Source: a virus (lineage: Duplodnaviria; Caudoviricetes). From it: a stretch of DNA of 64,000 nt. The notes beneath the pieces are model-generated. The model searched no databases and was not told where the DNA came from. It saw nothing but the letters and a program-made list of their open reading frames with translations. Positions 891 through 46,157 of the stretch are shown here, piece by piece (within the stretch, counting starts at the first letter, position 1; each line of letters starts with the position of its first letter). The stretch covers positions 12,529-76,528 of IMG/VR virus record IMGVR_UViG_3300044898_000031. One strand, 5' to 3'. The position numbers were made by a program, and so were the translations under genes.

Positions 891-1257
891 CTGTTTCGTA
901 ACCTATTCTATCCCTGAAACCATACCATTCAGACCGCCTCATAACTGCTTTTCCAAACGTATCAAGGCAGTCGTTTAGGTAATTAGCTAAAATAAAATCA
1001 GGTGTATTACTACCATTTTCTTTAGAGTATCTGTTTATCAACGCTTCAAGTTCTTTTATGAAAGTATTGCCATCCCGTTCTTCTATCTGCGGGTATGGAT
1101 TATAGGGTTCGTTGATAGCTGTGCTTAACTCACCGATTGGCTTTATATGTTCATGGCTTTTCGCGCTAAGTTGTGTTTTTTCATCAACAGCCCCGGCCAA
1201 GAAAACATAATCTGTAGCTGTGTTATGTAAAATAGTTTTTCCTTTTATAATTTTCAT
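877..1257 (-). CDS. Conserved-type phage hypothetical protein
   Basis: 126 aa; C-terminal 'ELEALINRYSKENGSNTPDFILANYL...WYG' motif resembles a common phage small-protein family. Confidence 0.6.
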   Translation of the reverse strand: MKIIKGKTILHNTATDYVFLAGAVDEKTQLSAKSHEHIKPIGELSTAINEPYNPYPQIEERDGNTFIKELEALINRYSKENGSNTPDFILANYLNDCLDTFGKAVMRRSEWYGFRDRIGYETDETV

Positions 1258-1286
1258 AATTTTATGTGTTAAAATATATTTAATTA

Positions 1287-1487
1287 CTATTTAACTGGCT
1301 TAAATAAGCCATATCCATCACTTTTTAATAAGTCAAATCTTTTTAAGATTATTTTATTGGTATTGTTGTAAAACGCCAATAATGAATTTGGTCTGTCTTT
1401 ACTTGGCTTAAAAATATCGGTAGAAGTGTCTATATCATCCAATAATTGCCAAAGATTTTCAGCTATTTTTTTGTAATCTTTTTCCAT
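1287..1487 (-). CDS. Hypothetical protein
   Basis: 66 aa ORF in operon orientation with A-rich leader. Confidence 0.55.
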   Translation of the reverse strand: MEKDYKKIAENLWQLLDDIDTSTDIFKPSKDRPNSLLAFYNNTNKIILKRFDLLKSDGYGLFKPVK

Positions 1488-1504
1488 TTTTTTTTACTAA
1501 GTAG

Positions 1505-1735
1505 TTAAATAATTGCTTTTAATTTTTGTTTTGGCAACTCAATATGGTCATAATGTACGTACTGTTGTTCATTCCCTTTATGAATATCAGTTGGAATAAT
1601 CCAAACCTTTAAGATACCTTCATCGAAATCAACAGAAACTAAAATACAAGGAATTATATATTTAGTTCTTGGGTCAGTATATTATAACTCCATATTAAAC
1701 TTAAAACATAATTTTTTAAACCTTTCTTCTGTCAT
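1505..1735 (-). pseudogene. Small gene interrupted by an in-frame TAA
   Basis: MTEERFKKLCFKFNMEL*YTDPRTKYIIPCILVSVDFDEG...KAII*; TAA at 1682-1684; frame fills the gap between neighbouring genes. Confidence 0.55.
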
Positions 1736-6083: not shown

Positions 6084-6428
6084 ATGTCTATTAAATTATT
6101 AACACCGAACCAACACGATGAATTATTAAACCTTTATCGATTATTCCCTGAACTCACTTTAGAGAATAAAGGGTACGAGGGTATAAACAGATGCGATTTT
6201 ACACAAGAAGCAAAAGACGCTGATAAAAAAGTCAACAGTATTTTAAAAAATAGTATCAGTGGCTTTAGTTCTTTTCAAAATTTCTGTCATAGCAAAGCGG
6301 GTGAAATATGTTTAAGGTTTCAATATAACTATAGTTACGATACAAATGATCTGCCATTTACAGGAGTAGGATATATTCTTTTGGATGAACTATTGAACGG
6401 CTTTAGTGACAAAACCCAAAAAAGCTAA
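6084..6428 (+). CDS. Hypothetical protein
   Basis: 114 aa ORF with A-rich leader. Confidence 0.6.
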   Translation: MSIKLLTPNQHDELLNLYRLFPELTLENKGYEGINRCDFTQEAKDADKKVNSILKNSISGFSSFQNFCHSKAGEICLRFQYNYSYDTNDLPFTGVGYILLDELLNGFSDKTQKS

Positions 6429-6550
6429 TCACAAAAATACTCCTGTTTCCTGATCGTTCAGGAGCACACCACCCGGCTGACTGTATTTATTTACGGGGTG
6501 CGCTTTTGAGGTGAGAAATGTTTAATAAATAACAAATTAAAAACGTAAAG

Positions 6551-6769
6551 ATGAATTTTAACACAGCACAAGAAGCGCAAACATTATTTGAATTGGCTTT
6601 TGGACGCTTACTAAGAATAGGGTCACGCCCGGCACAAGATGGAGATGTAGTAGAATATGAGCATTGTAAATGGGTTTGTTATAATGCTGCTGAATATTTA
6701 GGTATTCAAACAGAATATTCTAGGCCGCATGATTTTGTAAGAGATTATTATAAGATTCACCATGACTAA
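6551..6769 (+). CDS. Hypothetical protein
   Basis: 72 aa ORF with A-rich leader. Confidence 0.6.
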   Translation: MNFNTAQEAQTLFELAFGRLLRIGSRPAQDGDVVEYEHCKWVCYNAAEYLGIQTEYSRPHDFVRDYYKIHHD

Positions 6770-7009
6770 CGAAGAAAAGATGCAGATATTAAAAGATAAT
6801 AATATAGAGTATCAATTTAATCCCCAAGGTAATTTAATGGCGCTATGTAAAATTAGCGTTTTTACTGAAGAGGAATGGTTTTTAGCAGACGATGTAATTA
6901 AGCTACTCTGATTTTCTTTGATAACGTTTCAGCGCAACGCTCCAAAGGCTTGCGCTTTTGGAGGTGCAAGGCAATAGTGCCGAAGCATAACAAAACGATC
7001 ACAATTAAC

Positions 7010-7285
7010 ATGAATAAGCAAAACAGAAAAGATTTAACCGAAGCCGTTGAATTTTTAGAAAAAGCAAAGGAACTAATAGCCAGGGCAAAAGAACGTGTTG
7101 AGCAAACCGGAAACGAGGAACAAGAAAAATACGACAATGCAAGTGAAGGTCAGCAAAGCAGGGATAAGTTCCAGCAAATGGAAGAAAACGCTTCTTCTTT
7201 GGAAGATATTTCAGGGTATTTAGATGAAGCTGAAACATCTATTGATGACCAAATAAACGCAATTCAAGATATTATCAACCAATAA
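7010..7285 (+). CDS. Acidic coiled-coil phage protein
   Basis: MNKQNRK...EEQEKYDNASEG...MEE pattern; ATG at 7010 preferred. Confidence 0.65.
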   Translation: MNKQNRKDLTEAVEFLEKAKELIARAKERVEQTGNEEQEKYDNASEGQQSRDKFQQMEENASSLEDISGYLDEAETSIDDQINAIQDIINQ

Positions 7286-7297
7286 ACCCTTAAGATC

Positions 7298-7429
7298 ATG
7301 AACTTTATTCAATTTTCAATAGGCTTAGTACTCATAGTGGGTTTAGGCTTATTAGCTATCAATGTAAACTGGGCTAATCAATGTCAGGATTTATTTAACT
7401 TGTTTAAAGGTAAGGAGAAAGTAAAATGA
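7298..7429 (+). CDS. Single-pass membrane microprotein
   Basis: 43 aa MNFIQFSIGLVLIVGLGLLAINVNW...; ATGA coupled to next gene. Confidence 0.55.
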   Translation: MNFIQFSIGLVLIVGLGLLAINVNWANQCQDLFNLFKGKEKVK

Positions 7430-7758
7430 ACCTAAAAGACGAAACCCTTAAACATATTGGCAATAAGTCAATAAAATGTATTTATATATTTTATTGCTAT
7501 TTTAGGATCGACCACGATAGTGATGTTGAGCAATTTATATTGCCAGTTAATCACACAAATGAACAAGCAAATGATTTTATAGCGTCTTTGGATTTTAATT
7601 ATGATAATGGTTATGGTTCTCAGCGCTACGATGGCACTATATGGTATAAAGACGGATCCTGGTCAGAGCGAACCGAATATGATGGCTCCGAATGGTGGGC
7701 ATATAGAACATGCCCCGAAATACCTAAAGAATTAAAAGGAGAACACCATGCCATTTAA
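7426..7758 (+). CDS. Conserved-type phage hypothetical protein
   Basis: 'LDFNYDNGYGSQRYDGTIWYKDGSWSERTEYDGSEWW' motif. Confidence 0.65.
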   Translation: MNLKDETLKHIGNKSIKCIYIFYCYFRIDHDSDVEQFILPVNHTNEQANDFIASLDFNYDNGYGSQRYDGTIWYKDGSWSERTEYDGSEWWAYRTCPEIPKELKGEHHAI

Positions 7759-7933
7759 ACCGTACACCCCTGAACAGGTCTTTGATTTACTCGGCAGCGT
7801 AACATGTGAAACCGATGTAATAGAAATAGAGCATTATGTAAAATCACACTGGCAGTATTATACGCCTTTAGATGTGCGCCTTTTCTTACAGAGTATTAGA
7901 ATGATTAATCAATATTTAAATAAAAAGACATGA
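7748..7933 (+). CDS. Hypothetical protein
   Basis: 61 aa, overlapping neighbours. Confidence 0.5.
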   Translation: MPFKPYTPEQVFDLLGSVTCETDVIEIEHYVKSHWQYYTPLDVRLFLQSIRMINQYLNKKT

Positions 7934-8172
7934 AAACTATTAGCGATTTAGATAAGCAATCTTTAAGAAATTATGTTAAACTGATTAACGAAGATCAGGG
8001 AAAGGTTAAAATAAAAATATCATTCAATATATCAAGTGTTGATGACTGCGAATACTTAATGTTCAATGTAAACGGTAAGAACATAATTCGTTTTACATTA
8101 GATGAAGCAATAAGTTTCTTAGATGGCTTAATGACGGCTTTAGATGCTTGTTTTTTAGATCAAATTAGCTAA
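7930..8172 (+). CDS. Hypothetical protein
   Basis: 80 aa, ATGA coupled. Confidence 0.55.
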   Translation: MKTISDLDKQSLRNYVKLINEDQGKVKIKISFNISSVDDCEYLMFNVNGKNIIRFTLDEAISFLDGLMTALDACFLDQIS

Positions 8173-8233
8173 CCAAACCACTAATTTCAAAGAACTGATA
8201 CATAAATATAACTAATTAAAACCAAAAATTACC

Positions 8234-8431
8234 ATGAAAAAAGCAAATATATTGGGCATATTAGCCTCAACTGCAATGTTAGGAATGCCAACAAGGCTAC
8301 CGGAAAGTAGACGCAGAAATTACCCATTACAAGGCAATCAAGGGTGGGGACATTACCACGAGCCAAAGGTAAAAAAATGGAGAGCGAAGGAACGAAGAGC
8401 AAAACAAGCACGTAAAATTAACTGGAATTAA
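8234..8431 (+). CDS. Small basic protein
   Basis: 65 aa; Arg/Lys-rich C-terminus; AACCAAAAATTACC leader. Confidence 0.55.
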   Translation: MKKANILGILASTAMLGMPTRLPESRRRNYPLQGNQGWGHYHEPKVKKWRAKERRAKQARKINWN

Positions 8432-8456
8432 AAACAAACCAAAAATTACCACAAAC

Positions 8457-8838
8457 ATGAAAAAATTACTACTCCTGCCATCCCTGTTATTTGTTTTAAC
8501 AGCTTCGGCACAAACAGCACAATACAAACGTATTGAAACAACTCATTTTAAAGGGGATAAATTGTCTTCTAAAGTTATCAATTACAAATCTGGAAATATT
8601 TCGATGGGAGACAGTTTTATCAATATCGAAGGATTAAAGAGTTTTACAATTGTTTCTAAGGGTCAAACGGAGGCCGAGGATGAAGGATATTATTCACGGA
8701 CATTATTTGATCACTGAGACGACCAAAGGCTCGCTAAAGGCTTTAAAACCCGTTCTTTTTTGGTCGCCTAAAAATAAACTAGTAGATGTAGTGGTAAAGG
8801 ACGGCCACCGAAATATTGATTATTGTTTAACCAATTAA
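8457..8838 (+). pseudogene. Secreted beta-rich protein with a +1 frameshift
   Basis: Signal peptide MKKLLLLPSLLFVLTASA|Q; deleting one T at 8703/8704 joins ORFs 8457-8717 and 8650-8838 into one 126-aa ORF. Confidence 0.55.
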
Positions 8839-19226: not shown

Positions 19227-19454
19227 ATGAAAGACAAACCTTTAATTGTTAGTGAAATGCTATCATCTCCAATGCGACCAACGGATTATATGTTTCCAAA
19301 TGCCACGATGACTATCATAACTGAACATAATATTGATTGTAAAAATTGCCTATATGGATTAGTAAAAAACTGGCTTGGAATAAGTAAGATTTGCCCTGTC
19401 TGCAATGGCACATATAGTATAGGGAAGTACACCACAACAACTATACTCAGATGA
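19227..19454 (+). CDS. Small Zn-finger protein
   Basis: CKNC...CPVCNG; ATG at 19227 preferred. Confidence 0.55.
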   Translation: MKDKPLIVSEMLSSPMRPTDYMFPNATMTIITEHNIDCKNCLYGLVKNWLGISKICPVCNGTYSIGKYTTTTILR

Positions 19455-19699
19455 AACGTAAGCACATCAAACAGTTTCAGGTAGTCCACTATCAAAAATC
19501 AGACGAACGTATCTTAGGATGCGTTATAAGGGCTATGCTCTCCCATTGTGGTCTTTGGACTAACGGAGAAAGAAAGTTTAAACGGTTTAATATATTTAAT
19601 GACGGGATATGATGAAAGACAAAATAAAATACTTTGGATTAAAGACTTTAATAATATTAATGGCTACGGCTGTTTATGATACTTTAAAAACTATAAATC

Positions 19700-19915
19700 A
19701 TGGAAAATCCTAAAACACACTTTTCATTCGGACTTATTTGTGGGGCAGCAAGTTTTATAGCCGCTCTGCTTATAGATAGCTATAAACCTGATTACAGGGA
19801 ACAAGTTCGCGCCAAAGACGCAGAGATAGGCCGCCTAAAGCTTGAAAACGAAATGCTTAAAGGCGATACTATTAACTACTTTACAGAACATAGCGAGATT
19901 GTTAAGGGTAATTAG
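19700..19915 (+). CDS. Membrane-anchored coiled-coil protein
   Basis: One N-terminal hydrophobic helix, then heptad-like region. Confidence 0.55.
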   Translation: MENPKTHFSFGLICGAASFIAALLIDSYKPDYREQVRAKDAEIGRLKLENEMLKGDTINYFTEHSEIVKGN

Positions 19916-20313
19916 GGTTTGGCTTTGGGATTACCGATAAGCGCACGACGTTTAAGAGTGTTAGACCGACTCCAATAATTTTCTTTGTTAAATGTAGCTT
20001 GATTTAATCCTTTATAATATTCTATATAATGTTTTTCAAGAGTGCCACCCCATCCATACGTAACGTCAATTACATTAAAAATAGGAGTCTTTCCAATGGA
20101 AATCATTGCTCTTATCCAAAACCCAACCGTGCTTTTTGCGTGCCTATGGCAGTAAAATCTTTCGGAGAAATTAAAGGTTTTTCCTACGTAAACGACAAAT
20201 CCATTATAGGGGCAACAAATAGTGTAAATATATTCAGGAACAAAAGGCACTATAAGCCCATTGCTCATATATTCCCATTTTTTGGGAAAGCCAGTTTTGG
20301 GTTGATTTATCAT
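19912..20313 (-). CDS. GIY-YIG nuclease
   Basis: 'YIYTI...YVGKT..FSERFYCH' and 'LEKHYI...FN'. Confidence 0.7.
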   Translation of the reverse strand: MINQPKTGFPKKWEYMSNGLIVPFVPEYIYTICCPYNGFVVYVGKTFNFSERFYCHRHAKSTVGFWIRAMISIGKTPIFNVIDVTYGWGGTLEKHYIEYYKGLNQATFNKENYWSRSNTLKRRALIGNPKAKP

Positions 20314-20474
20314 TTTTTATCCTGTTTCGGTATTTCAATATTTAAACGCTTGGCGTTTTTTTTAATCCAGTGTTCGACCAGGTTGCCCTGCGATCTGCCT
20401 TCATGCTCGGAGATTTGTTCCAATACCGGCTTTAGATTTTCTTCAATTTTTACAGTTAACATTTTTTTTGCCAT
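20310..20474 (-). CDS. Ribbon-helix-helix protein coupled to the GIY-YIG gene
   Basis: 54 aa MAKKMLTVKIEENLKPVLEQISEHEGRSQGNLVEHWI; ATGA overlap; TATATTTG 3 nt upstream. Confidence 0.75.
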   Translation of the reverse strand: MAKKMLTVKIEENLKPVLEQISEHEGRSQGNLVEHWIKKNAKRLNIEIPKQDKK

Positions 20475-20547
20475 GCTCAAATATACGTATAAACGAAGTA
20501 TTTACTGATAAATAAAAAATAATTTAAAAAAATATATTCAAAAAGTA

Positions 20548-20577
20548 TTGACAATGTACATATTATTTGTATCTTTA
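20548..20577 (+). promoter_or_regulatory. Rightward promoter, back-to-back with the RHH promoter
   Basis: TTGACA-N16-TATCTTTA. Confidence 0.55.
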
Positions 20578-20609
20578 CATTGCCATTCAATAAAGGATGA
20601 TATTAAAAG

Positions 20610-21038
20610 TTGCAAAAGATGAGAACAAGATACCAAATACAATCGGCAATTGGCGCATGTCGCGGGCGAATAGAAAACGGCGCTGATTTGAAAAATGCAT
20701 TCGCTGATTTATTAGATGATATATCTGATATTTATGCAGGTGCGAGTATTTATGAATCACAAGATGGCGAAGACGGGCATTTGAGCGATTGCGCATGTCA
20801 CAATGAGCCAAGCAAACCAAATGAAGCATGTTCATGTGGTTTCGAACCGTCTCCAAATGTGGAATTTGAAACCCAATACCAATTGGAGCAATTTAGAGAA
20901 ATTGAAGGTCAATACTTTGACGAATATAATATACACTACGCAGGAACGCAAATGGATCGTAATTGCGCTCAAAAGATGCTTAATCTTATTAATCAAATGG
21001 AATATGAAATAAAAAAACATGCAAGATTTTATAATTAA
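20610..21038 (+). CDS. Hypothetical protein
   Basis: 142 aa; CxC motifs. Confidence 0.55.
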   Translation: MQKMRTRYQIQSAIGACRGRIENGADLKNAFADLLDDISDIYAGASIYESQDGEDGHLSDCACHNEPSKPNEACSCGFEPSPNVEFETQYQLEQFREIEGQYFDEYNIHYAGTQMDRNCAQKMLNLINQMEYEIKKHARFYN

Positions 21039-21267
21039 CCATATCAAACGAAAATGGCTTGCTATAGTAACCTGTTTCCTGATTGGCACTGCATTTATTT
21101 GTGCTGTATTAACTGTAATTAATCTTAGTAGGTAATTTATATTAAAGATGATGATATAACCAATAGCAATGACACTGAGCTACCTGATTATAGAAAAAGG
21201 CAAGCATTTGCAAATCTTAAAAAAATGTTAACAATCAAACAAATAATAAGTCACTAAAACAAAAGAC

Positions 21268-21507
21268 ATGAAAACACAAGCAAATGACAGTATTAACCCC
21301 CAAATTGAAACTATAGAACGCGCTGGCGAACAATTTTACACAGACATTTTTAGTACAGGCGGTCTCACTAAGCGAGAGTACTTTGCTGCTATGGCCATGC
21401 AGGGAATATTAGCGAGTTCAGCAGATAGAGGCGAAACAGCAGCAGGTAATATGGCAGTTAAGTTTGCAGATGCTATTATCCAAGCCCTTAACAAAGACGA
21501 GAAATGA
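21268..21507 (+). CDS. Conserved-type small phage protein
   Basis: 'GGLTKREYFAAMAMQGILA...AVKFADAIIQAL' widespread phage motif. Confidence 0.7.
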   Translation: MKTQANDSINPQIETIERAGEQFYTDIFSTGGLTKREYFAAMAMQGILASSADRGETAAGNMAVKFADAIIQALNKDEK

Positions 21508-21767
21508 AAACAAAGCTTTTACGTAAATTCAGAAAGCGATTTAAGTTCACCGATATACACGGGTATTGGGAAATGCTTGATAAGCATACTAATATTATTT
21601 ACGGCCCGGAATGGGGTTATTGCAGAAGCAGGTATTCAGTAAAAGAATATCTTTATTTCAAGGCTATAGCATTACTAATAGGTAATGAATACTGGAAAAG
21701 CGATAGGCTTTTAAAGAAAAGTAAAAGGCGCAGGTTATTTCATATTAAACAGATTAAATCAGCATGA
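21504..21767 (+). CDS. Basic hypothetical protein
   Basis: 87 aa, ATGA coupled. Confidence 0.55.
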   Translation: MKTKLLRKFRKRFKFTDIHGYWEMLDKHTNIIYGPEWGYCRSRYSVKEYLYFKAIALLIGNEYWKSDRLLKKSKRRRLFHIKQIKSA

Positions 21768-22360
21768 AAACATACCAAATCATAGTAAAGGACGGTAAGG
21801 GCAGACCTGTAAATCCGTATCAAAGGTTAATACCAAGATCGGATAAATATCCAAACGAGAATATAGTTAATCCAGATTGGACGATGTTTCAAGAAAACGA
21901 ACCATGGTTATCGACCGATAACATTCCAGACACCTCAATAGGTGAACCAATTATGGCGTATTTACAATGGCAATATAATAAAAATAATGGCACGCCGAAT
22001 GGTAAATGGGTCAATATACCTACTACCGACAAGGTTTCATATTATAAAGATATTCCTACCCGTCAAATATGGGTAGCTACCCCCGAATCAAAACAGGTAG
22101 AATCTAAGTTCGGAGAGTGGGTGAGTAAAATTAGGACTAAAGCCATTGAGGTAATAGTTAAGCAAATGGGCGATTTGGATTACATGCATTTTCCTCTAAG
22201 GAAAGTAGCATACCTCAAATCATTTGTATCTAATCCGGTAACTTCTAATTACGCCACTAAGGGCAATTTAGAATTATGGTCAACTGATAGCTTATGTGAA
22301 TTAGCAGATTATATTAATTCTCTTCCCTCACCACCAAATACAGTTAAGAAAGGAGAATAA
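21764..22360 (+). CDS. Hypothetical protein
   Basis: 198 aa, ATGA coupled. Confidence 0.6.
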   Translation: MKTYQIIVKDGKGRPVNPYQRLIPRSDKYPNENIVNPDWTMFQENEPWLSTDNIPDTSIGEPIMAYLQWQYNKNNGTPNGKWVNIPTTDKVSYYKDIPTRQIWVATPESKQVESKFGEWVSKIRTKAIEVIVKQMGDLDYMHFPLRKVAYLKSFVSNPVTSNYATKGNLELWSTDSLCELADYINSLPSPPNTVKKGE

Positions 22361-22660
22361 GAGGTGATGAAATTCTTTAAAATATATTGGCCCAATATAA
22401 TATTTGCGGCAGCCGTATTGGGACTTATATGGGTAGTGATTTTTATGATGTCTGATAAACAATATGAACTTAAGTAACCACATGACAAACGAATAACTAA
22501 TAGAAAGGATAATAACTGATGAAACGTTCATATTATTTACTGATAATAGCATTGATGATTATGTCATTCTTATTAGGAGTTATACTTACTCCTATTATAA
22601 ATCAGTTGATTTATGGTAAGAGAAATATTTACATTGAAGTAAAGCATTAATTCATTATAA

Positions 22661-22843
22661 ATGGTACTAAATAAAGAAGAATTTATTCAACAATACGTTA
22701 TTCAGTATGTAGCTTTGAAAATGTCACGAGTTAATCGCTATGAAGTAGTTAATGGTGATATTGTAGAAAGAAATACATTGATAGCAATGAGTGAAGCAGA
22801 AGAGATTTACAATAAACTATATTCATTAAAGATAGGATCATGA
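22661..22843 (+). CDS. Hypothetical protein
   Basis: 60 aa ORF. Confidence 0.5.
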   Translation: MVLNKEEFIQQYVIQYVALKMSRVNRYEVVNGDIVERNTLIAMSEAEEIYNKLYSLKIGS

Positions 22844-23265
22844 ATGAACAACCAAAAGCTGAAACAGTTGAAGAAGCTGCAATCATAATTTACAATGAGA
22901 AGTACGGAGACAAATCCGATACCGCTGAAATAGAACATGCTTTCTTTTCTGGGTTTAAGGAATGTTCAATTTGGCAATCCCAACAACCCCTCACCGAAGC
23001 CCAGGTAACAGAGATAGATTATAAATTATTCGATGCCTTTATTCACTGCTTGTTAATTAGTGGTGCACATACAATTGAATCATTGAGATCGAAGGATAAA
23101 GAAACAGTGATTGAGGCATATAAATATTGGCTTAAAGAATTACCAACTGGGCTTTTGTCCATGCAAGATGAAATAGTTAAACACCATGTCCGTCCAATTC
23201 AGGAAGTCTTAAATAATGCTGAAGATCGTTGCAAAGGCTTAGGGCTTAAGATTCAACCCCACTAA
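22840..23265 (+). CDS. Hypothetical protein ('KAETVEEAA' N-terminal module)
   Basis: 141 aa; N-terminus resembles that of 16499. Confidence 0.6.
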   Translation: MNEQPKAETVEEAAIIIYNEKYGDKSDTAEIEHAFFSGFKECSIWQSQQPLTEAQVTEIDYKLFDAFIHCLLISGAHTIESLRSKDKETVIEAYKYWLKELPTGLLSMQDEIVKHHVRPIQEVLNNAEDRCKGLGLKIQPH

Positions 23266-25149: not shown

Positions 25150-25596
25150 TTAACTAATATACAAATTATATTCTGCCTTTCTCCTGTCAACCAAGTCCTG
25201 CAATATCTTACCATCTGCCTTGTTCCATGCATACCATGCTTTTTGCAAATCGCCCTGTTGTCCGTTGATGATCTTAAGCAGCGTTGAACTCCGAAACCCG
25301 GAAGTTCCGATATTGTATACTAAACTAAACAATGCATCAAACTGATTTTGTTTAAGTATTGGCTTTGTCCAGTAAGCCACTGCATGGGAGTATTGTCCGG
25401 AAGTATTATTGAATAGTTCACGGGCGCGTTCTATGGTTATTGGCGGGTCGGTTATCTTTACATGTTCTCCATTTTCGTAATACGTAGACCCGTAGCCGAT
25501 AGTAGGTATGCCAACTTGGTCAAGGTATGGGTGTAGTACAAGCCCTTCTTGTTGTTTAATGAAGTTAAATCCTGCTTCGCTTAAAGTCGTTATCAT
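25150..25596 (-). CDS. Endolysin, GH24 lysozyme
   Basis: E-x8-D-x5-T triad: 'QQEGLVLHPYLDQVGIPTIGYG'; 'NQFDALFSLVYNIG'. Confidence 0.92.
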   Translation of the reverse strand: MITTLSEAGFNFIKQQEGLVLHPYLDQVGIPTIGYGSTYYENGEHVKITDPPITIERARELFNNTSGQYSHAVAYWTKPILKQNQFDALFSLVYNIGTSGFRSSTLLKIINGQQGDLQKAWYAWNKADGKILQDLVDRRKAEYNLYIS

Positions 25597-25802
25597 GCCG
25601 CTAATTCAAATTGTAACTCTTTATATTCTTTTTTCTTTTTCCAATTAACTTTCATCTTTTCCGCATGGCAGCACCAACATGAACAAGGTTTGCCATGCGA
25701 CCTAAAGCAGTAAAATTTGCCAACTGTATTAGTCAATCCATAATTTTTTAACCGCTTTTTATACTTCAGCATTTTCAATTCATGCCGTCTTGCTTTGTTC
25801 AT
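25593..25802 (-). CDS. Small basic protein with CSCxxC motif
   Basis: 'KPCSCWCC'; ATGA coupled to the lysozyme gene. Confidence 0.55.
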   Translation of the reverse strand: MNKARRHELKMLKYKKRLKNYGLTNTVGKFYCFRSHGKPCSCWCCHAEKMKVNWKKKKEYKELQFELAA

Positions 25803-28109: not shown

Positions 28110-28391
28110 TTAAAACCTGTTATGAAAGCGGATATATTTCCAAAGGTATAGCATAACAATACACATCGGCAGGTTAAGAATTAATATCCGGATAAGAGCC
28201 GTTGCGTTCGGGGGCCATATCAAAAAGAAAATACCAGCGCCACCGTATACCCAGATTTTACAAACAAATAAGGCAATCAGCAACTTGCGTAACATCCCAT
28301 TTTTAGAGCGGTAAAACTCGTATGCTATCCCGACCGACATCAGGCAGATAACAAGCATTACTATTTCAATTGCGATAAGGTTAAGGTTCAT
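28110..28391 (-). CDS. Small multi-pass membrane protein
   Basis: 93 aa, about 3 hydrophobic helices. Confidence 0.7.
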   Translation of the reverse strand: MNLNLIAIEIVMLVICLMSVGIAYEFYRSKNGMLRKLLIALFVCKIWVYGGAGIFFLIWPPNATALIRILILNLPMCIVMLYLWKYIRFHNRF

Positions 28392-28645
28392 TTTCTGTTT
28401 TCTAACATGGTTTTTACTGCTGTTAACACATTGGTGTTATTGTTGGTTACTCTATTGCTTTCCTCAAATTGTCTTTCTATGGTCTTTTTCCAATCTGTGC
28501 GTTCATCTCTATGCTGCCGCTCCAGTTCTTCACGCTCCCGCTTATGGTCTTGAATAACGTCCTTGATGAACTTAACGCACCATCCTATAGCTCCTATAGC
28601 GATTGCTGCAATTACACCGGGGATGCCATACTTATCTAAATCCAT
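28388..28645 (-). CDS. Holin-like single-TM plus coiled-coil protein (BhlA/UviB-like architecture)
   Basis: N-terminal TM 'YGIPGVIAAIAIGAIGW' followed by charged heptads. Confidence 0.6.
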   Translation of the reverse strand: MDLDKYGIPGVIAAIAIGAIGWCVKFIKDVIQDHKREREELERQHRDERTDWKKTIERQFEESNRVTNNNTNVLTAVKTMLENRK

Positions 28646-28701
28646 CCGAACTTTATTTTTGCTTCAATTATTACAGTTGCTGACAAGTATTTTCATTTGA
28701 T

Positions 28702-29001
28702 TTATCTTTTCATATCCCTATAAATATCTGTAATTTGTTTTCTGATGCCTTTCTGTTCATCCCTTAAATCCTTGATGTCATCTCTGATATTAGAGATTGC
28801 TAAAGTAACAGATTCGTTTACTACGCTTTTTATAAACTCCTCTTTCTCTAACCTTAATAATCTATTGGCCTCTGTTTTTTGCTGCTTAAGGTATTTAAAA
28901 TACTGGTCAACGCCCCAGCCAAAGCCAAACACGCCGCTTACGCAAGCGGTAATCCATTTAAATAAAGCGATCCAATCCGGTTCAGGTGGTGGTATTGCCA
29001 T
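28702..29001 (-). CDS. Holin-like single-TM plus coiled-coil protein
   Basis: Start MAIPPPEPDW at 29001 preferred; TM then heptads. Confidence 0.6.
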   Translation of the reverse strand: MAIPPPEPDWIALFKWITACVSGVFGFGWGVDQYFKYLKQQKTEANRLLRLEKEEFIKSVVNESVTLAISNIRDDIKDLRDEQKGIRKQITDIYRDMKR

Positions 29002-29008
29002 TTTGTTT

Positions 29009-29446
29009 TTAATCTGATAGTAAGTCATGTCTTGATCCGCTTATTAGTATTAACAGGGTTACAATAAACGTACCGATATTTAAAGCTAAAAAATAAACAT
29101 AAGGGTCACTAATTTTGCCGAAATAAACTCCTGTAATCAGGACGTAAGTTAAAACAATGGCTACTTTAAAGCAATTTAATATTTGCCTTTGAATAAAATG
29201 CCTTACGCCCATAAACTCAAAAATAAAAACAGAGCTAATGCCTAACCCCATAATCGCATTACGCCACTTATCTTTAAACCAGATACACTCCATCATGTCC
29301 ATTTTAACAGTGGCAAGTATATAGTAAAAACGAGTTATGCTTACAGAAAATATCAGCAGGCACAAGCAGGTAACCCCGGTTAAGGAGAATACATTCTTGC
29401 CTATCTTTATTATCCAGTCAATAAGTGATCCTATAAAAAGTTTCAT
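29009..29446 (-). CDS. Four-TM membrane protein
   Basis: ATG at 29446 overlaps the stop of the upstream peptide gene (ATGA); four hydrophobic segments. Confidence 0.7.
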   Translation of the reverse strand: MKLFIGSLIDWIIKIGKNVFSLTGVTCLCLLIFSVSITRFYYILATVKMDMMECIWFKDKWRNAIMGLGISSVFIFEFMGVRHFIQRQILNCFKVAIVLTYVLITGVYFGKISDPYVYFLALNIGTFIVTLLILISGSRHDLLSD

Positions 29447-29643
29447 GCGGCGGGTATCCATACACATGCACCGTTTGAGCATACCCAATAGCCGTTAGTT
29501 GTTTTACCAGGGCCTGAACATGCCGGGTTGCATGTGGTGCTAACCTCAGGGTGAACGATACCGAATTGGTCTCTTGTAACATAGCCTGCTACGGTGGCGA
29601 ATGTTTCTGGTGATAATGTTTGTAAGTAATCTTTGATTTCCAT
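29443..29643 (-). CDS. Small Cys-rich peptide (C-x3-C-x12-C-x4-C)
   Basis: 66 aa; Cys38/42/55/60 confined to the C-terminal half; A-rich leader. Confidence 0.7.
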   Translation of the reverse strand: MEIKDYLQTLSPETFATVAGYVTRDQFGIVHPEVSTTCNPACSGPGKTTNGYWVCSNGACVWIPAA

Positions 29644-29661
29644 TTTATTGTGTTTTTAAAG

Positions 29662-36068: not shown

Positions 36069-39000
36069 TTATTCAGCCTCTTTTGCCATTGTCTTTTGTA
36101 AATCCTGTTGGCCCTTTTGTATAAAATGTGCTTTTGCAGCATCATTGCCATGAGGAGTAAATAATCTCGGCAGTGCTATATCTCGTATATACCCGAAAAG
36201 CGATAATACACCTGCTTGGTCAGCATTAACATTATTATCAATTGAGTTTATGCCAAATAAGCTTTTTTCAAATCCTGTCTTTTGGTTAAGATAATTTATG
36301 CCTTTTTCAAGTGCTGGATTTAATGATTCGGTGGCTACCATAGCATTTGCAAGATACTGCTCTCCAAATCCTACAGCATTAACTTTCCTAAATAAACCAA
36401 TATCTGGTTGCCCTTTATCATTTCTGTTATTAGTAATATAAGGTGCTCTACCTGTTACAGCAGTTGTCACAAACTGAGTCCCTGGCGCTGAGGTTAAAGG
36501 ACTAACGAATGTATTTAAAGCCTGATTAGATGCTGCTTCGACGCTTTGACCTGCTGTACCGCCCAATTGATTTGTTTCCCATGCTTTAGGTGCGCCAATG
36601 GCACGTAATCCACGACCAAGTACAGGGAATTGAGAACCAAAAATATCTATATCATCCCATTCACCAGTTTTTTCATTATAAGCGAATTTCTTCGTGAAAT
36701 CATTTTTAAGGGACTCTGGCATAGGCACACGACCAAGTTTACTTGTTTCATCTTCCCATGGCCATTTTCCTGTAATCGCATGATAGGCTGTCATCCAGTA
36801 AGCAACTGCCCCTACAACCCCTCCTGTCACTAATTGAGCGGCTTTATATCCTATCAATTTAGCCGTTTGTTTAGCGCCCATTTTTGTTGTAAATGCCTGT
36901 TTTATAGTTGGTCTTTCTAATGCCAATGGGCTTGTTCCTGTTACTGCCTGTAATCCTGCTTTATAAATAGCAGAACCAAAGGTATAATATGGTGCCATTC
37001 CGCTCTCCTTTAGATTCCTGCCTAATGTGCTTTGCAGTGCTTTGGTATAAACACCCAATTCTTCCTGCATTTTTTGATGTAATTCAGGGGTTGCCTGTGG
37101 ATTCATAGCATCTGTAAGCCTGTACATAAGAACTCTTGCCTTCAAGTCAAAAGAATGATTGCCATAAAGTAATGGTGAAAAATCCCAAAAAGCAGGAATA
37201 TCTATTTTGCCAACTTTTAAACGTAATGCTTTTGCACCCATATCTTCGGCAAATTCCCTATTCCATGTTTTCTGCCATGTCTTTTCAGGTATAAACCCTT
37301 CATTAGCCATTTTTTGAATAGTTCTTAAAGCATCGTCACTTGAAATGTCAGTGGCTAATATTTTCCCTATTGTTAAAAAACTTTTTGTTACTGGGTTATT
37401 AGCTATAAGCCCTCCCGCTTTACCTATCAGCCCATTTTTATAAGCCCATTCAGTTACATATGGATTTGACCCCGTAATGACACCTGTGAGCCTGTATGCA
37501 TGTGCGGTAGCTTCTAACGGCCCACCCAATTGGAATTTTATGAGTGTATTGGCTACTTTTCCAAATAGGCTATACTTATCAAATTCATCCGTTGAGTTAA
37601 ATATAGGTTTCATCTCATCATGTAACCATTTAGGCATCAGTACGTATTTTGATGGTGTATGTGTGATTTTACCATCATTTATAATCATCCTACTGTCCTT
37701 TACCTTTTCCTTAACAGCATCAAATACCTCGTCACCTATCTGTATTTTATTGCCATCGTCAGGATGATTATGTGGTATATCAACTACTAATCCTGCTTCT
37801 TTTAAAGCATCAATTGCATTTGATTTATTGTTGGTTTTAATAGATGATACAAGCTTATTTGAAAAGTCAGCAATTGCGGTGCTATAATTATCGCCCTGTC
37901 CTGTAAACATTTTATTGTTTATATTTTGAGGGGCATTAAAAGTATTTCCTTTCGACGGTATTCTCGCTTTTTCATTGCCACCTAAACGAGTCATGGGGAA
38001 ATAAGTATCTAATGGGCCAAGAGCATCACTAAAAATACCCTCGTTACTTGCATGGCTGTCGGCTATTGGTTTTTCTATAAATTCCTTATATGCCTCCAAT
38101 GCCTGTTGCATTTTATGGTCGGTAAATTTGCCGTCTTTTACCTGATCATCGAAAGTCTTACCATTAGATAATGTTCCTAAAGTAATTACATTATCTGCCG
38201 CATGTTTAAATACGTCTGAAATATATTGCCGAGCTTCGTCATACCTCGCAGCCCCAATAAGGCTTGCGGCAAAGTCAGCTGGATTACCTTCTCCCTCTAA
38301 TGGCTGTAAGGTTTTTATCATGCTGTACATATTGCCATCTTTGCCATCCTTAAAAAGGTCATGCAAATCACTATCACTTTGCTTTTCTATTTGGTCAGCA
38401 TAGCCATTCCATCGTTCTTTTGCCCCTCGTAGCCTGCTTTCTACCAATGCTTCACGTAGATTTGTCCACCCATCGCTACCAACTAAGTTCTTTATTGCCT
38501 TAGTAGCTGTTTTAAGTATAACTGAGGCTTGCGATCGAGAGGTAGCATATTTTCTAACTGCATCATAAGCATCAAAGTTTTTTATGTCGTGTGTAAATGC
38601 CCTCAACTGTTCTAAGTTCCGTATAGTATAACTTTTTAGTGCCGCTGTTCGGGTATATACCCTTTTAGTTTCATCTTTCTGTTTTTCAGGTAATTCATCT
38701 ACTGGAACAGGTAACTTTGCTTGTGCAGGTATTTGCCTTTTAGGAAGTGTGGCAACTGGCTTTTTGCGCTCCGCCATAAACTGGTCAAGTTCCTTTGGTG
38801 TATTGTATGGCTTTCTCTCTTTTGGATCAAGGTTGGCAAGATGTGCCGCATACGCTGACTTTAAAGCATCAACATCCTCATCGGTGGTATCATGATACGT
38901 TTTTAACCAATCATTTACTATATCGGCAAATTTATGTATACCAATATCAGCATAAGCCTTTATCACTTTAGCCATGCTCTTTAATAATTCAGGGTTGACC

Positions 39001-44868: not shown

Positions 44869-45807
44869 TTATTCACCGCCATTATAGCTATAATTTTGAT
44901 TATCTGTCATAAAATCCATACTCACTATCCTTACAAAAGTATTGCTGTCATTCCTGATCGTTACCTGCATTATTTTGCCCTGTAATTCCGCTCCGTTAAA
45001 CAAGGCTTTTACCACATCGGTATAACGAGGGTCTGTCATATCCCTTAAAAAGTCGGCAAAGTAATCCCCCTGTAATTGCTTATAATTCCCCTTTTTCAAC
45101 CTCGACTGCTGCCCGTTTGGTTTCCCCTCATACGGTAAGATAAATATATCCCCCTGATTTGGTGAACCCCATACGGATGAGGCTACCTGACGGGCTGAAA
45201 AGAAGTTTTTCACTACCTGATCGTCCACGTTTACATAAAAGGTTATTTCAGACTCATACTGCACCCCATAAAAGTTATTATATACCGAGCTATCATTGTT
45301 TTTCCAAAGCTGTCCATTTTTAAAGCTAAATAACTTATCCCCATACCTGATGCTGTTTTCAGGCTCTAAAGAATAGTAAGTTGACCACTTCTTAAATTTC
45401 TCGCAAAAAGCTAATGTCTGTCCGTTATCGGGATTAAGTAAATGGATGGCTATTTCAAAGGCACTTATCCTTAATGAGCCATCAGAGTAAAACTGGATAT
45501 TAGGATTCCCGTCATAGGTAAACGTCTGTTCAAAGTTTACCACGTTCCCGGTTTGTGGCGTGCCATTTACTGCTCCGAATATCGGGTATACCTGCCCTGA
45601 CACATAATTATCAACGGTATAAGTCAAATCGTACTGTTGCCCTGTTATTAGCCCCAATTGCGTCAGGTCGCCTTTATAGCTTACCAAGCCGGGATTGCAG
45701 GGGAAGTGCTGCGCAAAGCCTCCGCTTATTACCCATCCGCTGTCTGAGAAATCAGAAACAGGGTCTACATATCCCATTTGCCCGACTATCATTGATATAC
45801 TTCCCAT
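44869..45807 (-). CDS. C-terminal part of the tail muzzle protein, with N-terminal jelly-roll-like domain
   Basis: 'AFCEKFKKWSTYYSLEPE...FSFKNGQLW...NNFYGVQYES...VKNF' resembles the C-terminus of crAss-like muzzle proteins; TAATG-coupled start at 45807. Confidence 0.6.
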   Translation of the reverse strand: MGSISMIVGQMGYVDPVSDFSDSGWVISGGFAQHFPCNPGLVSYKGDLTQLGLITGQQYDLTYTVDNYVSGQVYPIFGAVNGTPQTGNVVNFEQTFTYDGNPNIQFYSDGSLRISAFEIAIHLLNPDNGQTLAFCEKFKKWSTYYSLEPENSIRYGDKLFSFKNGQLWKNNDSSVYNNFYGVQYESEITFYVNVDDQVVKNFFSARQVASSVWGSPNQGDIFILPYEGKPNGQQSRLKKGNYKQLQGDYFADFLRDMTDPRYTDVVKALFNGAELQGKIMQVTIRNDSNTFVRIVSMDFMTDNQNYSYNGGE

Positions 45808-46157
45808 TATACTCCTCCTCCTGTTGCTCCTGTTGCCGGAATAGGGCACGAAGTCGTATTAAAAACTGGTGCTACATAATAGGTATTAAGTACACGGTCA
45901 GTAAGCAACGTCCATGTACCTGCTATTTTCTTAAATAAAGTATCGTTGGGCTGATTATACCAAATATCCCCATCAGAACCTCCAATGGGTGATATATTAC
46001 TATTGGCATTATAGGTAATAGAAGTCCCATCCGGCACGATTGCCTGTGGTGATATTTGCTGAATATTAGGCATAATCAGTCCATCAAGGGCGCTGTTATC
46101 TAAATAGATACCTTCTAATATTGTCCATCCCAAATATCCACTATTTACTAATGCCAT
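45807..46157 (-). CDS. Small tail-associated protein
   Basis: 116 aa; 'NSGYLGW...PN...Y.AP...SCP' with an internal 'GSDGDIWY...KKIAGTW' fibre-type repeat. Confidence 0.5.
   Translation of the reverse strand: MALVNSGYLGWTILEGIYLDNSALDGLIMPNIQQISPQAIVPDGTSITYNANSNISPIGGSDGDIWYNQPNDTLFKKIAGTWTLLTDRVLNTYYVAPVFNTTSCPIPATGATGGGV

Follow-up and report, generated by a model that had tools for sequence, protein, structure and literature searches.

What does a phage gain from a small cysteine-rich protein whose gene runs into that of a membrane protein? This question was raised by a locus in a 64,000-nucleotide (nt) stretch of viral DNA (the window), which corresponds to bases 12529-76528 of the 76,528-bp IMG/VR record IMGVR_UViG_3300044898_000031 (genome G000; CheckV completeness 100%), an uncultured phage of Bacteroidota from soil. 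The locus contains, on the minus strand, a gene for a protein of 66 amino acids (gene 1, 29443..29643 (-); the mini-protein) and an overlapping gene for an inner-membrane protein with four transmembrane (TM) helices (gene 2, 29009..29461 (-); 4TM). A first-pass annotation had compared this pair with peptide-communication and bacteriocin/immunity cassettes and had also mentioned lysis timing and a disulfide-bonded fibre accessory. In the analysis presented here, the mini-protein looked like a small folded protein and not like a leader-plus-core precursor, and its gene was found to open a conserved block of five genes. It is tentatively proposed that this block is a late envelope-permeabilising or lysis-timing module, for which the mini-protein would serve as soluble partner or cargo. 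Among the earlier suggestions, a role in lysis timing together with disulfide bonding, hypothetical as it is, fits the evidence best.

Mini-protein family and its conservation

The open reading frame (ORF) of the mini-protein was found as first described. Its cysteines, at positions 38, 42, 55 and 60, form the pattern C-x3-C-x12-C-x4-C. The statement that the protein has no Sec signal was also borne out, as the N-terminal sequence contained neither a hydrophobic signal nor a lipobox. When L002 and L003, two Joint Genome Institute contigs that each carry a mini-protein gene and a 4TM gene, were compared, 6 synonymous changes and 1 conservative change were detected in the mini-protein ORF. Because of this synonymous excess, it may be concluded that the ORF is translated and is under purifying selection.

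A word-seeded search of 5.8 billion proteins yielded one close relative of the mini-protein (P0002, 80% identity). A HMMER pass over 1.84 billion cluster representatives added 18 true mini-protein clusters with E values from 3e-17 to 9e-4, all of which were metagenome singletons. A relative in a second complete phage genome, G001 (IMGVR_UViG_3300009093_000003; 74,713 bp; 100% complete; loci L008-L011), was found as the 1 IMG/VR record that matched a hand-written DNA pattern for a six-cysteine core, and only in this way; its mini-protein matched the family with an hhalign E value of 1e-17. In total, the mini-protein has approximately 20 relatives from metagenomes and 4TM approximately 14 relatives.

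Neither the mini-protein nor 4TM matched an entry of Pfam, PHROGs, NCBIfam or PADLOC at E <= 1, and no meaningful match to either was obtained in PDB or BFVD. DNA and tblastn searches of INPHARED (50,697 cultured-phage records) with the region, the mini-protein, four other family members, 4TM and genes 4 and 5 of the block gave no match. The same was true of IMG/VR protein-pattern scans with the mini-protein, the family member P0024, 4TM and the third gene, and a prophage copy was not found in scans of GTDB genomes. Among the patterns scanned, the families are known from two IMG/VR records only, G000 and G001. No description of such a mini-protein/4TM pair was found in the literature. Judged by these sequence comparisons, both the mini-protein family and the 4TM family are new and are without annotation in every library searched.

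The first-pass annotation had expected a conserved cysteine core next to a variable leader. The core was indeed kept among the homologues, but the N-terminal half was nearly as conserved as the C-terminal half. In an alignment of 21 sequences, residues 1-33 had a mean pairwise identity of 0.35, compared with 0.44 in residues 34-66, and the latter value decreased to 0.39 when the four cysteine columns were removed. The near-invariant residues of the mini-protein were Y6, L7, L10, V18 and G28. In four members, a further N-terminal extension was present, which was helical and homologous from one member to another.

Predicted fold and cysteine pattern of the mini-protein

AlphaFold2 produced a single compact alpha/beta model over the whole chain of the mini-protein, with a predicted local distance difference test (pLDDT) score of 87.7 and a predicted template modelling (pTM) score of 0.73. 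The model consisted of helices at residues 3-9 and 12-26 and a beta-hairpin formed by residues 51-56 and 59-64; C38 and C42 were placed in a loop rich in Gly, Pro and Thr, and C55 and C60 were placed in the hairpin. One compact fold is not what the leader-plus-core design had implied, and the model suggests a small folded protein instead. Only noise was obtained when it was compared with PDB (Foldseek and VIA-align, wide) and with BFVD. A hidden Markov model search of PDB matched the mini-protein only to the scorpion potassium-channel toxins 1jlz and 1pvz, with non-significant E values of 1 and 4.1. This likeness is a resemblance of cysteine and glycine spacing and is no evidence of kinship.

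The cysteine count of the C-terminal half, the only part to which the parity applies, was even in all 22 sequences: fifteen had four cysteines, five had six, one had eight and one had two. Gains and losses also occurred in twos. C42 and C60 were lost together in P0027, where they were replaced by proline and tryptophan, and C38 and C55 were missing together from P0029 and P0024. In the six-cysteine forms, the insertion of a cysteine between C38 and C42 was simultaneous with the change W53C. In P0014, C55 was shifted across the hairpin. The even counts and the paired gain and loss point to disulfides and not to zinc. In the simplest reading of these substitutions, the connectivity would be C38-C55 and C42-C60, with the inserted cysteine joined to Cys53 in the six-cysteine forms.

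A zinc site was considered and found unlikely. The first two cysteines are separated by one to three residues, or by ten in sequences with the inserted cysteine; where a cysteine was lost, P, W, G, K, V or Q, and never His or Asp, stood in its place; and members with two and with eight cysteines exist. The mini-protein has no CxxC knuckles and no match to a zinc ribbon in Pfam.

These observations bear on an alternative in which the mini-protein would be a cytoplasmic regulatory subunit, with metal-binding or redox-switch cysteines, that keeps 4TM or its holin-like neighbours inactive. Soluble antiholins are known, namely T4 RIII and P1 LydB. Such a role is consistent with the lack of an export signal, with the pairing of an acidic mini-protein and a basic N-terminal helix in 4TM, with the predicted cytoplasmic location of the coiled coils of the neighbours, and with translational coupling, which suggests a 1:1 complex. 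The cysteine spacing, the loss of cysteines in twos without replacement by His or Asp, the two-cysteine and eight-cysteine members and the lack of knuckles and of a zinc-ribbon match all argue against it, as does the 4TM of G001, which has no basic N-terminal helix. The regulatory subunit is thus considered improbable.

The membrane protein 4TM and the gene overlap

The first-pass annotation had reported that the stop codon of the mini-protein overlapped the ATG of a gene for a four-TM protein of 145 amino acids. The overlap was confirmed, but its length may have to be amended from 4 nt to 19 nt. The TGA codon of the mini-protein gene (29445..29443) overlaps the ATG at 29446..29444 within an ATGA (29446..29443), and 4TM has 145 amino acids when it is read from there. 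An upstream ATG (29461), from which 4TM has 150 amino acids, lies inside the Trp62 codon of the mini-protein (A|TGG), 15 nt 5' of the second ATG. The dual-coded overlap would then span 29443..29461 (-), with the DNA for the mini-protein end ...C-V-W-I-P-A-A-stop encoding M-D-T-R-R-M of 4TM in the -1 frame. The upstream start was used by gene callers and by most 4TM homologues, which begin with MD.RR or MGS.R and have no second Met. It is possible that both starts are usable, and the genes overlap whichever applies. The 19-nt overlap was also found in L002 and L003, and an ATGA overlap was found in G001. A programmed frameshift fusion of the two products was rejected, as the overlap contained no slippery heptamer, either in the window or in L002.

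The four TM helices that had been reported for 4TM were also obtained with AlphaFold2 from an alignment of seven sequences (pLDDT 80), and the model added an amphipathic N-terminal helix, which is basic in G000. Comparison of this model with known structures returned only generic four-helix bundles (Z <= 10.8, below the meaningful level for helical bundles). Searches of the ESM Atlas yielded unnamed clusters (scores <= 0.90). Twelve relatives of 4TM, with identities of 42-77%, were collected. Invariant among them is the motif F-K-D-K-W-R-N-x-I-x-G-x-G, with which TM2 starts, and the C-terminus, H-x-x-L-x-D, is conserved. The charge count (Lys+Arg, 7.1 versus 4.1) favours an N-in/C-in topology, in which the FKDKWRN motif would probably face outward, to the periplasm.

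The 4TM of G001 was missed by the word-seeded search. It is 28% identical to that of G000, has TKSNWRAF where the invariant motif would stand, and lacks a basic N-terminal helix; its homology was recognised by hhalign (probability 97.8%, E = 1e-12). Docking of the mini-protein on the basic N-terminal helix of 4TM is a weaker proposal in light of the missing helix in G001. A DsbB/VKOR-like role for 4TM was rejected, the cysteines of 4TM not being conserved. In one relative, P0005, the N-terminal half was identical to the product of L002 246-692 and the C-terminal half was of the P0004 type; this mosaic suggests, at the level of the sequences, recombination within the 4TM gene.

The outward motif and the cysteine pattern are the features that the earlier comparison with peptide-communication and bacteriocin cassettes would rely on. 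According to that comparison, the mini-protein would be a released signal with 4TM as its receptor, or a toxin with 4TM as its immunity protein; freed by lysis or by a host exporter, it would oxidise outside and either bind the periplasmic face of 4TM on infected cells nearby or harm cells that lack 4TM. The disulfide-type cysteines, the tight coupling to a membrane protein with an invariant and probably periplasmic motif, and the scorpion toxins as the sole, although non-significant, sequence matches in PDB are consistent with this. In about half of the 22 members, moreover, G-G, S-G or A-G stands directly before the first core cysteine, as in a Gly-Gly type cleavage motif. This motif was not conserved: S-T-T precedes C38 in G000, whereas S-G-G is found in the 80%-identical P0002. 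The N-terminal half, moreover, is conserved and was modelled within the fold, which counts against this reading. The net charge of the mini-protein is -3 in the N-terminal half and +1 in the C-terminal half, and the range of the latter across the family, +1 to -5, is that of a neutral to acidic and not of a cationic core.

Genes for processing and export were sought in Pfam scans of 111 ORFs of G000 (25 of the 30 matched families listed) and 84 ORFs of G001 (all 20 families listed). Peptidase_C39, ABC_tran, radical SAM, LanB/C and YcaO were not among the listed families of either genome, so that no C39 peptidase, ATP-binding cassette exporter or maturase was found in G000 or G001; an exporter of the host is possible. 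A modifying enzyme, first noted as absent from the window, is also missing among the families listed for the remainder of the 76.5-kb genome. The contact motifs of both partners were conserved and not diversifying, which is at variance with a communication or bacteriocin design. The locus belongs to a late operon, no integrase domain was among the 25 of 30 G000 families listed, and an immunity function would have little to protect. Taken together, a released signal or a toxin/immunity pair appears unlikely.

Linkage of the two genes

Gene context was readable in five lineages, and in all of them the mini-protein and 4TM genes were adjacent or on a shared contig, in agreement with the co-occurrence expected for the pair. 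The genes adjoined and overlapped in G000, L002, L003 and G001. Contigs were also matched by size: P0002 and P0004 came from one contig of 33,635 bp, and P0026 and P0008 came from one contig of 3,471 bp. For several mini-protein homologues on long contigs, no size-matched 4TM contig was found; since diverged 4TM proteins such as that of G001 escape the word-seeded search, this was not taken as absence of the gene.

L002 and L003 were nearly identical across the mini-protein gene, the 4TM gene and the first half of the third gene. Their identity ended approximately 30 nt upstream of the mini-protein ATG and in the middle of the third gene. Thus, with its flanks exchanged, the pair moves as a mosaic unit. 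In G000, an A-rich spacer of 18 nt (29644..29661 (-)) separates the gene for an exported protein of 124 amino acids from the mini-protein ATG, and the sequence CACAATAAA immediately 5' of this ATG is identical in L002 and L003.

This linkage is relevant to the idea that the mini-protein is a structural virion protein, such as a decoration or fibre-tip protein, that oxidises after release and has no functional tie to the membrane genes. A late gene beside fibre genes would suit such a protein, and a small disulfide-stabilised fold would suit extracellular life. The overlap with the membrane gene, however, is conserved across five lineages, the two genes are inherited together as a mosaic unit, and the pair stayed intact in L002 and L003 while the upstream flank was exchanged. 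The probability of an unlinked virion protein is accordingly regarded as very low.

The five-gene membrane block

The pair opens a block of five genes in the order mini-protein, 4TM, single-TM coiled coil, single-TM coiled coil and three-TM protein, which occupies 29643..28110 (-) in G000. The gene for a TM segment followed by a coiled coil that had been reported next to 4TM is present as gene 3 (28702..29028 (-)); its product has a single TM helix and then a charged coiled coil and is predicted to be N-out/C-in. Gene 4 (28388..28645 (-)) encodes a single-TM protein of 85 amino acids with a highly charged helical tail (G001 homologue, 39% identity, E = 8e-16), for which only weak PHROG matches were obtained, namely phrog_462, phrog_4884 (holin, E = 0.007) and phrog_9829. 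Gene 5, the last in the block (28110..28391 (-)), encodes a three-TM protein of 93 amino acids with a basic C-terminus (G001 homologue, 40% identity, E = 8e-15). In the single-TM proteins, acidic N-termini and basic segments after the TM helix suggest, by charge count, an N-out/C-in orientation with charged cytoplasmic tails.

In G001, the block follows a gene for a fibre of 1,214 amino acids on the minus strand and encodes a mini-protein of 78 amino acids, a 4TM of 121 amino acids, single-TM coiled coils of 89 and 69 amino acids and a three-TM protein of 98 amino acids. Pairwise E values between G000 and G001 for genes 2-5 were 1e-11, 3e-6, 8e-16 and 8e-15, respectively. The two phages share just 21 of 126 ORFs by BLASTP, yet each gene of the block is retained in both, in the same order. 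Synteny despite so few shared ORFs indicates that the block is a conserved part of this lineage rather than a chance insertion. In both phages, a crAss muzzle C-terminal domain (PF25729) was detected with E values of about 1e-6 (G000, window 44869-45849 (-); G001, 36180-37130 (-)), which places the lineage near Crassvirales.

Gene 3 has two in-frame starts in G000, at 29028 (108 amino acids, adding K7 and K9) and at 29001 (99 amino acids). The upstream ATG lies within the His145 codon of the 4TM gene, and this His is conserved near the end of 4TM. Dual ATGs that are 9-10 codons apart were found in both G000 (29001-29028 (-)) and G001 (L008 18787-18819 (-)), and in the longer forms 2-3 additional Lys/Arg residues precede the N-terminus of the shorter form, which is acidic and rich in Pro (MTYYQIKNK-MAIPPPEPDW and MDFYKIKTRT-MAAPEP). 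An upstream start was absent from L002 and L003, in which gene 3 is a positional counterpart with the same architecture and non-significant similarity to that of G000 (pairwise E 0.13). Between gene 3 and the next membrane gene, L002 carries an ORF for an HNH-type protein of 169 amino acids (1072-1581 (+)), which is missing from the corresponding position of L003. Next, in either contig, comes a gene for a coiled-coil protein that is anchored by a TM helix at its C-terminus (107 amino acids in L002 and 131 amino acids in L003).

Genomic setting and the relation to the fibre genes

In G000, three genes for proteins with Sec signals precede the block, encoding the fibre and proteins of 147 and 124 amino acids. 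The block is followed by a gene for an exported protein of 616 amino acids with a beta-helix and He_PIG, and a terminator-like hairpin was seen only beyond this gene; no terminators were seen within the block. All other products of this operon stretch are directed to the envelope, having a Sec signal or TM helices. Further downstream, a PF00959 lysozyme and its two-TM neighbour are encoded, the lysozyme being 2.5 kb from the block. In G001, the block stands directly after the fibre gene. In this lineage of Bacteroidota phages, which is related to crAss phages, the block ends the fibre/late operon.

The fibre-like protein of 1,214 amino acids in G001 (19410-23054 (-), L008/L009) opens with a Bacteroidota-type signal peptide, MKKLSFILLLFISAAAFAQP. 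An exported fibre is therefore a trait common to G000 and its distant relative G001.

A small ORF was also noticed next to the lysozyme gene of G000. At window positions 25593-25802 (-), it encodes a very basic protein of 69 amino acids with a Cys/His cluster, C-x3-H-x3-C-x-C-x-C-C-H, and its stop codon overlaps the lysozyme start (ATGA). It is a second small cysteine-rich protein, in this case coupled to a lysis gene, and no Pfam or PHROG match to it was found.

A comparable stretch was found in L004, an unrelated IMG/VR phage of 38 kb. Its positions 6358-8838 (+) contain a fibre gene followed by genes for two signal-peptide proteins, a TM protein of 70 amino acids and a protein of 118 amino acids with an N-terminal TM helix. 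One of the signal-peptide proteins is homologous to the 147-amino-acid protein of G000 (44% identity over query residues 54-140). The mini-protein/4TM pair is absent from L004, and genes for lysozyme-like and CsrA-like proteins lie on the opposite strand.

With this setting established, a fibre-maturation device can be considered, in which the block would hold, fold or hand over the exported fibre and its partners at the inner membrane, with the mini-protein as an accessory or adaptor that contains disulfide bonds. The tail-fibre protein has a Sec signal in both phages that carry the full block (read by eye in G000). In G001, nothing separates the block from the preceding fibre gene; in G000, it comes after the genes for the fibre and two exported partners, in the same operon, and the gene for the exported beta-helix/Ig protein follows immediately. 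The context, however, comes from two genomes only, and L004 has a fibre and a homologous exported partner without the block. For the single-TM proteins, a cytoplasmic location of the coiled coils is predicted. No sequence link between the mini-protein and the fibre was found, and kinship of the mini-protein with the fibre or the 616-amino-acid exported protein was rejected by sequence comparison. A function in fibre maturation is considered rather unlikely.

Proposed role of the block

Genes 3-5 encode small membrane proteins with a predicted N-out/C-in orientation and charged cytoplasmic tails, which gives them the general look of holins. The overlap of the mini-protein gene with a membrane gene, the holin-like neighbours and the dual start of gene 3 favour an envelope/lysis module. 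The location of the block in G000, between the fibre genes and the lysozyme gene, is in agreement with this. The following course of events may be envisaged. The mini-protein would be made in the cytoplasm in a fixed ratio with 4TM and without an export signal. If its cysteines form disulfides, its functional state should exist outside the reducing cytoplasm. It could reach the periplasm via its 4TM partner or once the holin-like proteins of the block open the membrane; there, it would be oxidised, and its action on the envelope would come as the infection ends.

Several points weigh against such a module and keep it a tentative proposal. With none of the block proteins was a meaningful score obtained against a model of a holin, an antiholin or a spanin, and 4TM does not have the long charged C-terminal tail that is typical of holins. 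In G000, the lysozyme gene and its two-TM neighbour are located elsewhere, behind a terminator-like site, which makes the block appear to be an extra. In G001, no endolysin that a holin could release was recognised among the hydrolase families searched: no peptidoglycan hydrolase was found by Pfam in 84 ORFs, to which three ORFs across locus borders do not belong, and six-frame searches for four common families, Phage_lysozyme, Amidase_2, SLT and Peptidase_M15_4, gave no match. A protein without a signal would stay in a reducing compartment until the membrane is breached, and a hypothetical export or release step is needed. An extra unpaired cysteine occurs in helix 2 of three mini-proteins. 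Finally, the topologies were deduced from charge counts alone, and the context was read for five lineages only.

Two further versions of an envelope function were considered, and together they were given little probability. In the first, the mini-protein would be the active envelope effector of an endolysin-independent lysis: after crossing the inner membrane through 4TM or the holin-like neighbours, it would be fixed in its fold by periplasmic disulfide formation and, in the manner of a protein antibiotic, would have the cell wall or the outer membrane as the target that it attacks or blocks. The basis for this version is that G001 keeps the whole block and has no recognisable wall hydrolase. 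In the second, the oxidised protein freed at lysis would be sensed by the invariant outer motif of 4TM on neighbouring infected cells and would delay their lysis.

Comparison with known systems

Multi-protein lysis cassettes with a soluble partner include lambda S107/S105 with its dual start, T4 T with RI and RIII, P1 LydA with LydB, and P2 Y-K-LysA-LysB-LysC. By analogy, the architecture of the block most resembles these cassettes. Common features are small proteins that span the membrane one to four times, charged cytoplasmic tails, a position at the end of the late genes, tight overlaps, and a small soluble protein encoded together with them. Two alternative starts, set apart by basic residues, are present in one gene, and in this respect gene 3 resembles the antiholin/holin pair design of lambda S107/S105. 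In contrast to these cassettes, no sequence or profile match of the block to a holin or antiholin family was obtained, 4TM having no match in Pfam, PHROGs or NCBIfam at the threshold given above, and the block lies apart from the lysozyme in G000 and is accompanied by no recognisable endolysin in G001. Of the traits of holins, charged tails were found in the three neighbours of 4TM, and the lysozyme gene is 2.5 kb away, behind the 616-amino-acid protein gene and the terminator-like site. A disulfide-type cysteine pattern, as in the mini-protein, is not known from the soluble partners of those cassettes.

Alpha-KTx toxins and defensins share with the six-cysteine members a spacing of the type CxxxC ... 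G ... NG.C.C, the small size and the even number of cysteines. The mini-protein differs from them in that its model has a loop, and not a helix, over CxxxC, and the pairing deduced for it would be 1-5, 2-4, 3-6 instead of 1-4, 2-5, 3-6. It also has a conserved helical N-terminal half of 33 residues, no signal peptide and no cationic character, and there was no fold match. Precursors of double-glycine bacteriocins and of ribosomally synthesised and post-translationally modified peptides are likewise encoded by small ORFs without a Sec signal, with a helical N-terminal part and a cysteine-containing C-terminal part, followed by a gene for a small multi-TM protein. Unlike in those precursors, the cleavage motif of the mini-protein is not conserved and its supposed leader is neither more variable nor more conserved than the core; no match to the precursor families of NCBIfam and Pfam was found.

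AgrD/AgrB is similar in that a signal-less peptide with an N-terminal amphipathic helix and cysteines is encoded by a gene overlapping a multi-TM gene. The gene order is reversed, however, 4TM does not match AgrB and lacks an invariant Cys, and the mini-protein is a folded protein of 66 amino acids, judging from its model, and not a short thiolactone precursor. The arbitrium system AimP/AimR differs in both components, the mini-protein having no Sec signal and the partner being 4TM without a TPR match. A two-component spanin combines an N-in/C-out subunit of the inner membrane with a lipoprotein of the outer membrane, whereas the single-TM proteins are predicted to be N-out/C-in and the mini-protein has neither a signal peptide nor a lipobox. 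Finally, the mini-protein is not strongly cationic, in contrast to the disruptin phiKT gp28.

Implications

The breaching of the envelope by Bacteroidota phages is poorly understood, and no characterised holin or spanin family matched the present phages in the searches made here. Further members of the two families can be recognised by NG-[YH]-[WC]-x-C ... C-x-W-[IV]-P in the mini-protein and by FKDKWRN and [DN]PY ... IGT..VT in 4TM. The mini-proteins constitute a family with a disulfide-type cysteine pattern and no export signal, in a lineage that exports its fibre via Sec. Release and sensing of the mini-protein, if they occur, would make it a new type of phage signal, one with the size of a protein. 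If the block is a lysis or envelope device, it would offer a small, defined set of genes for a new way of opening the envelope of Bacteroidota or of timing its opening.

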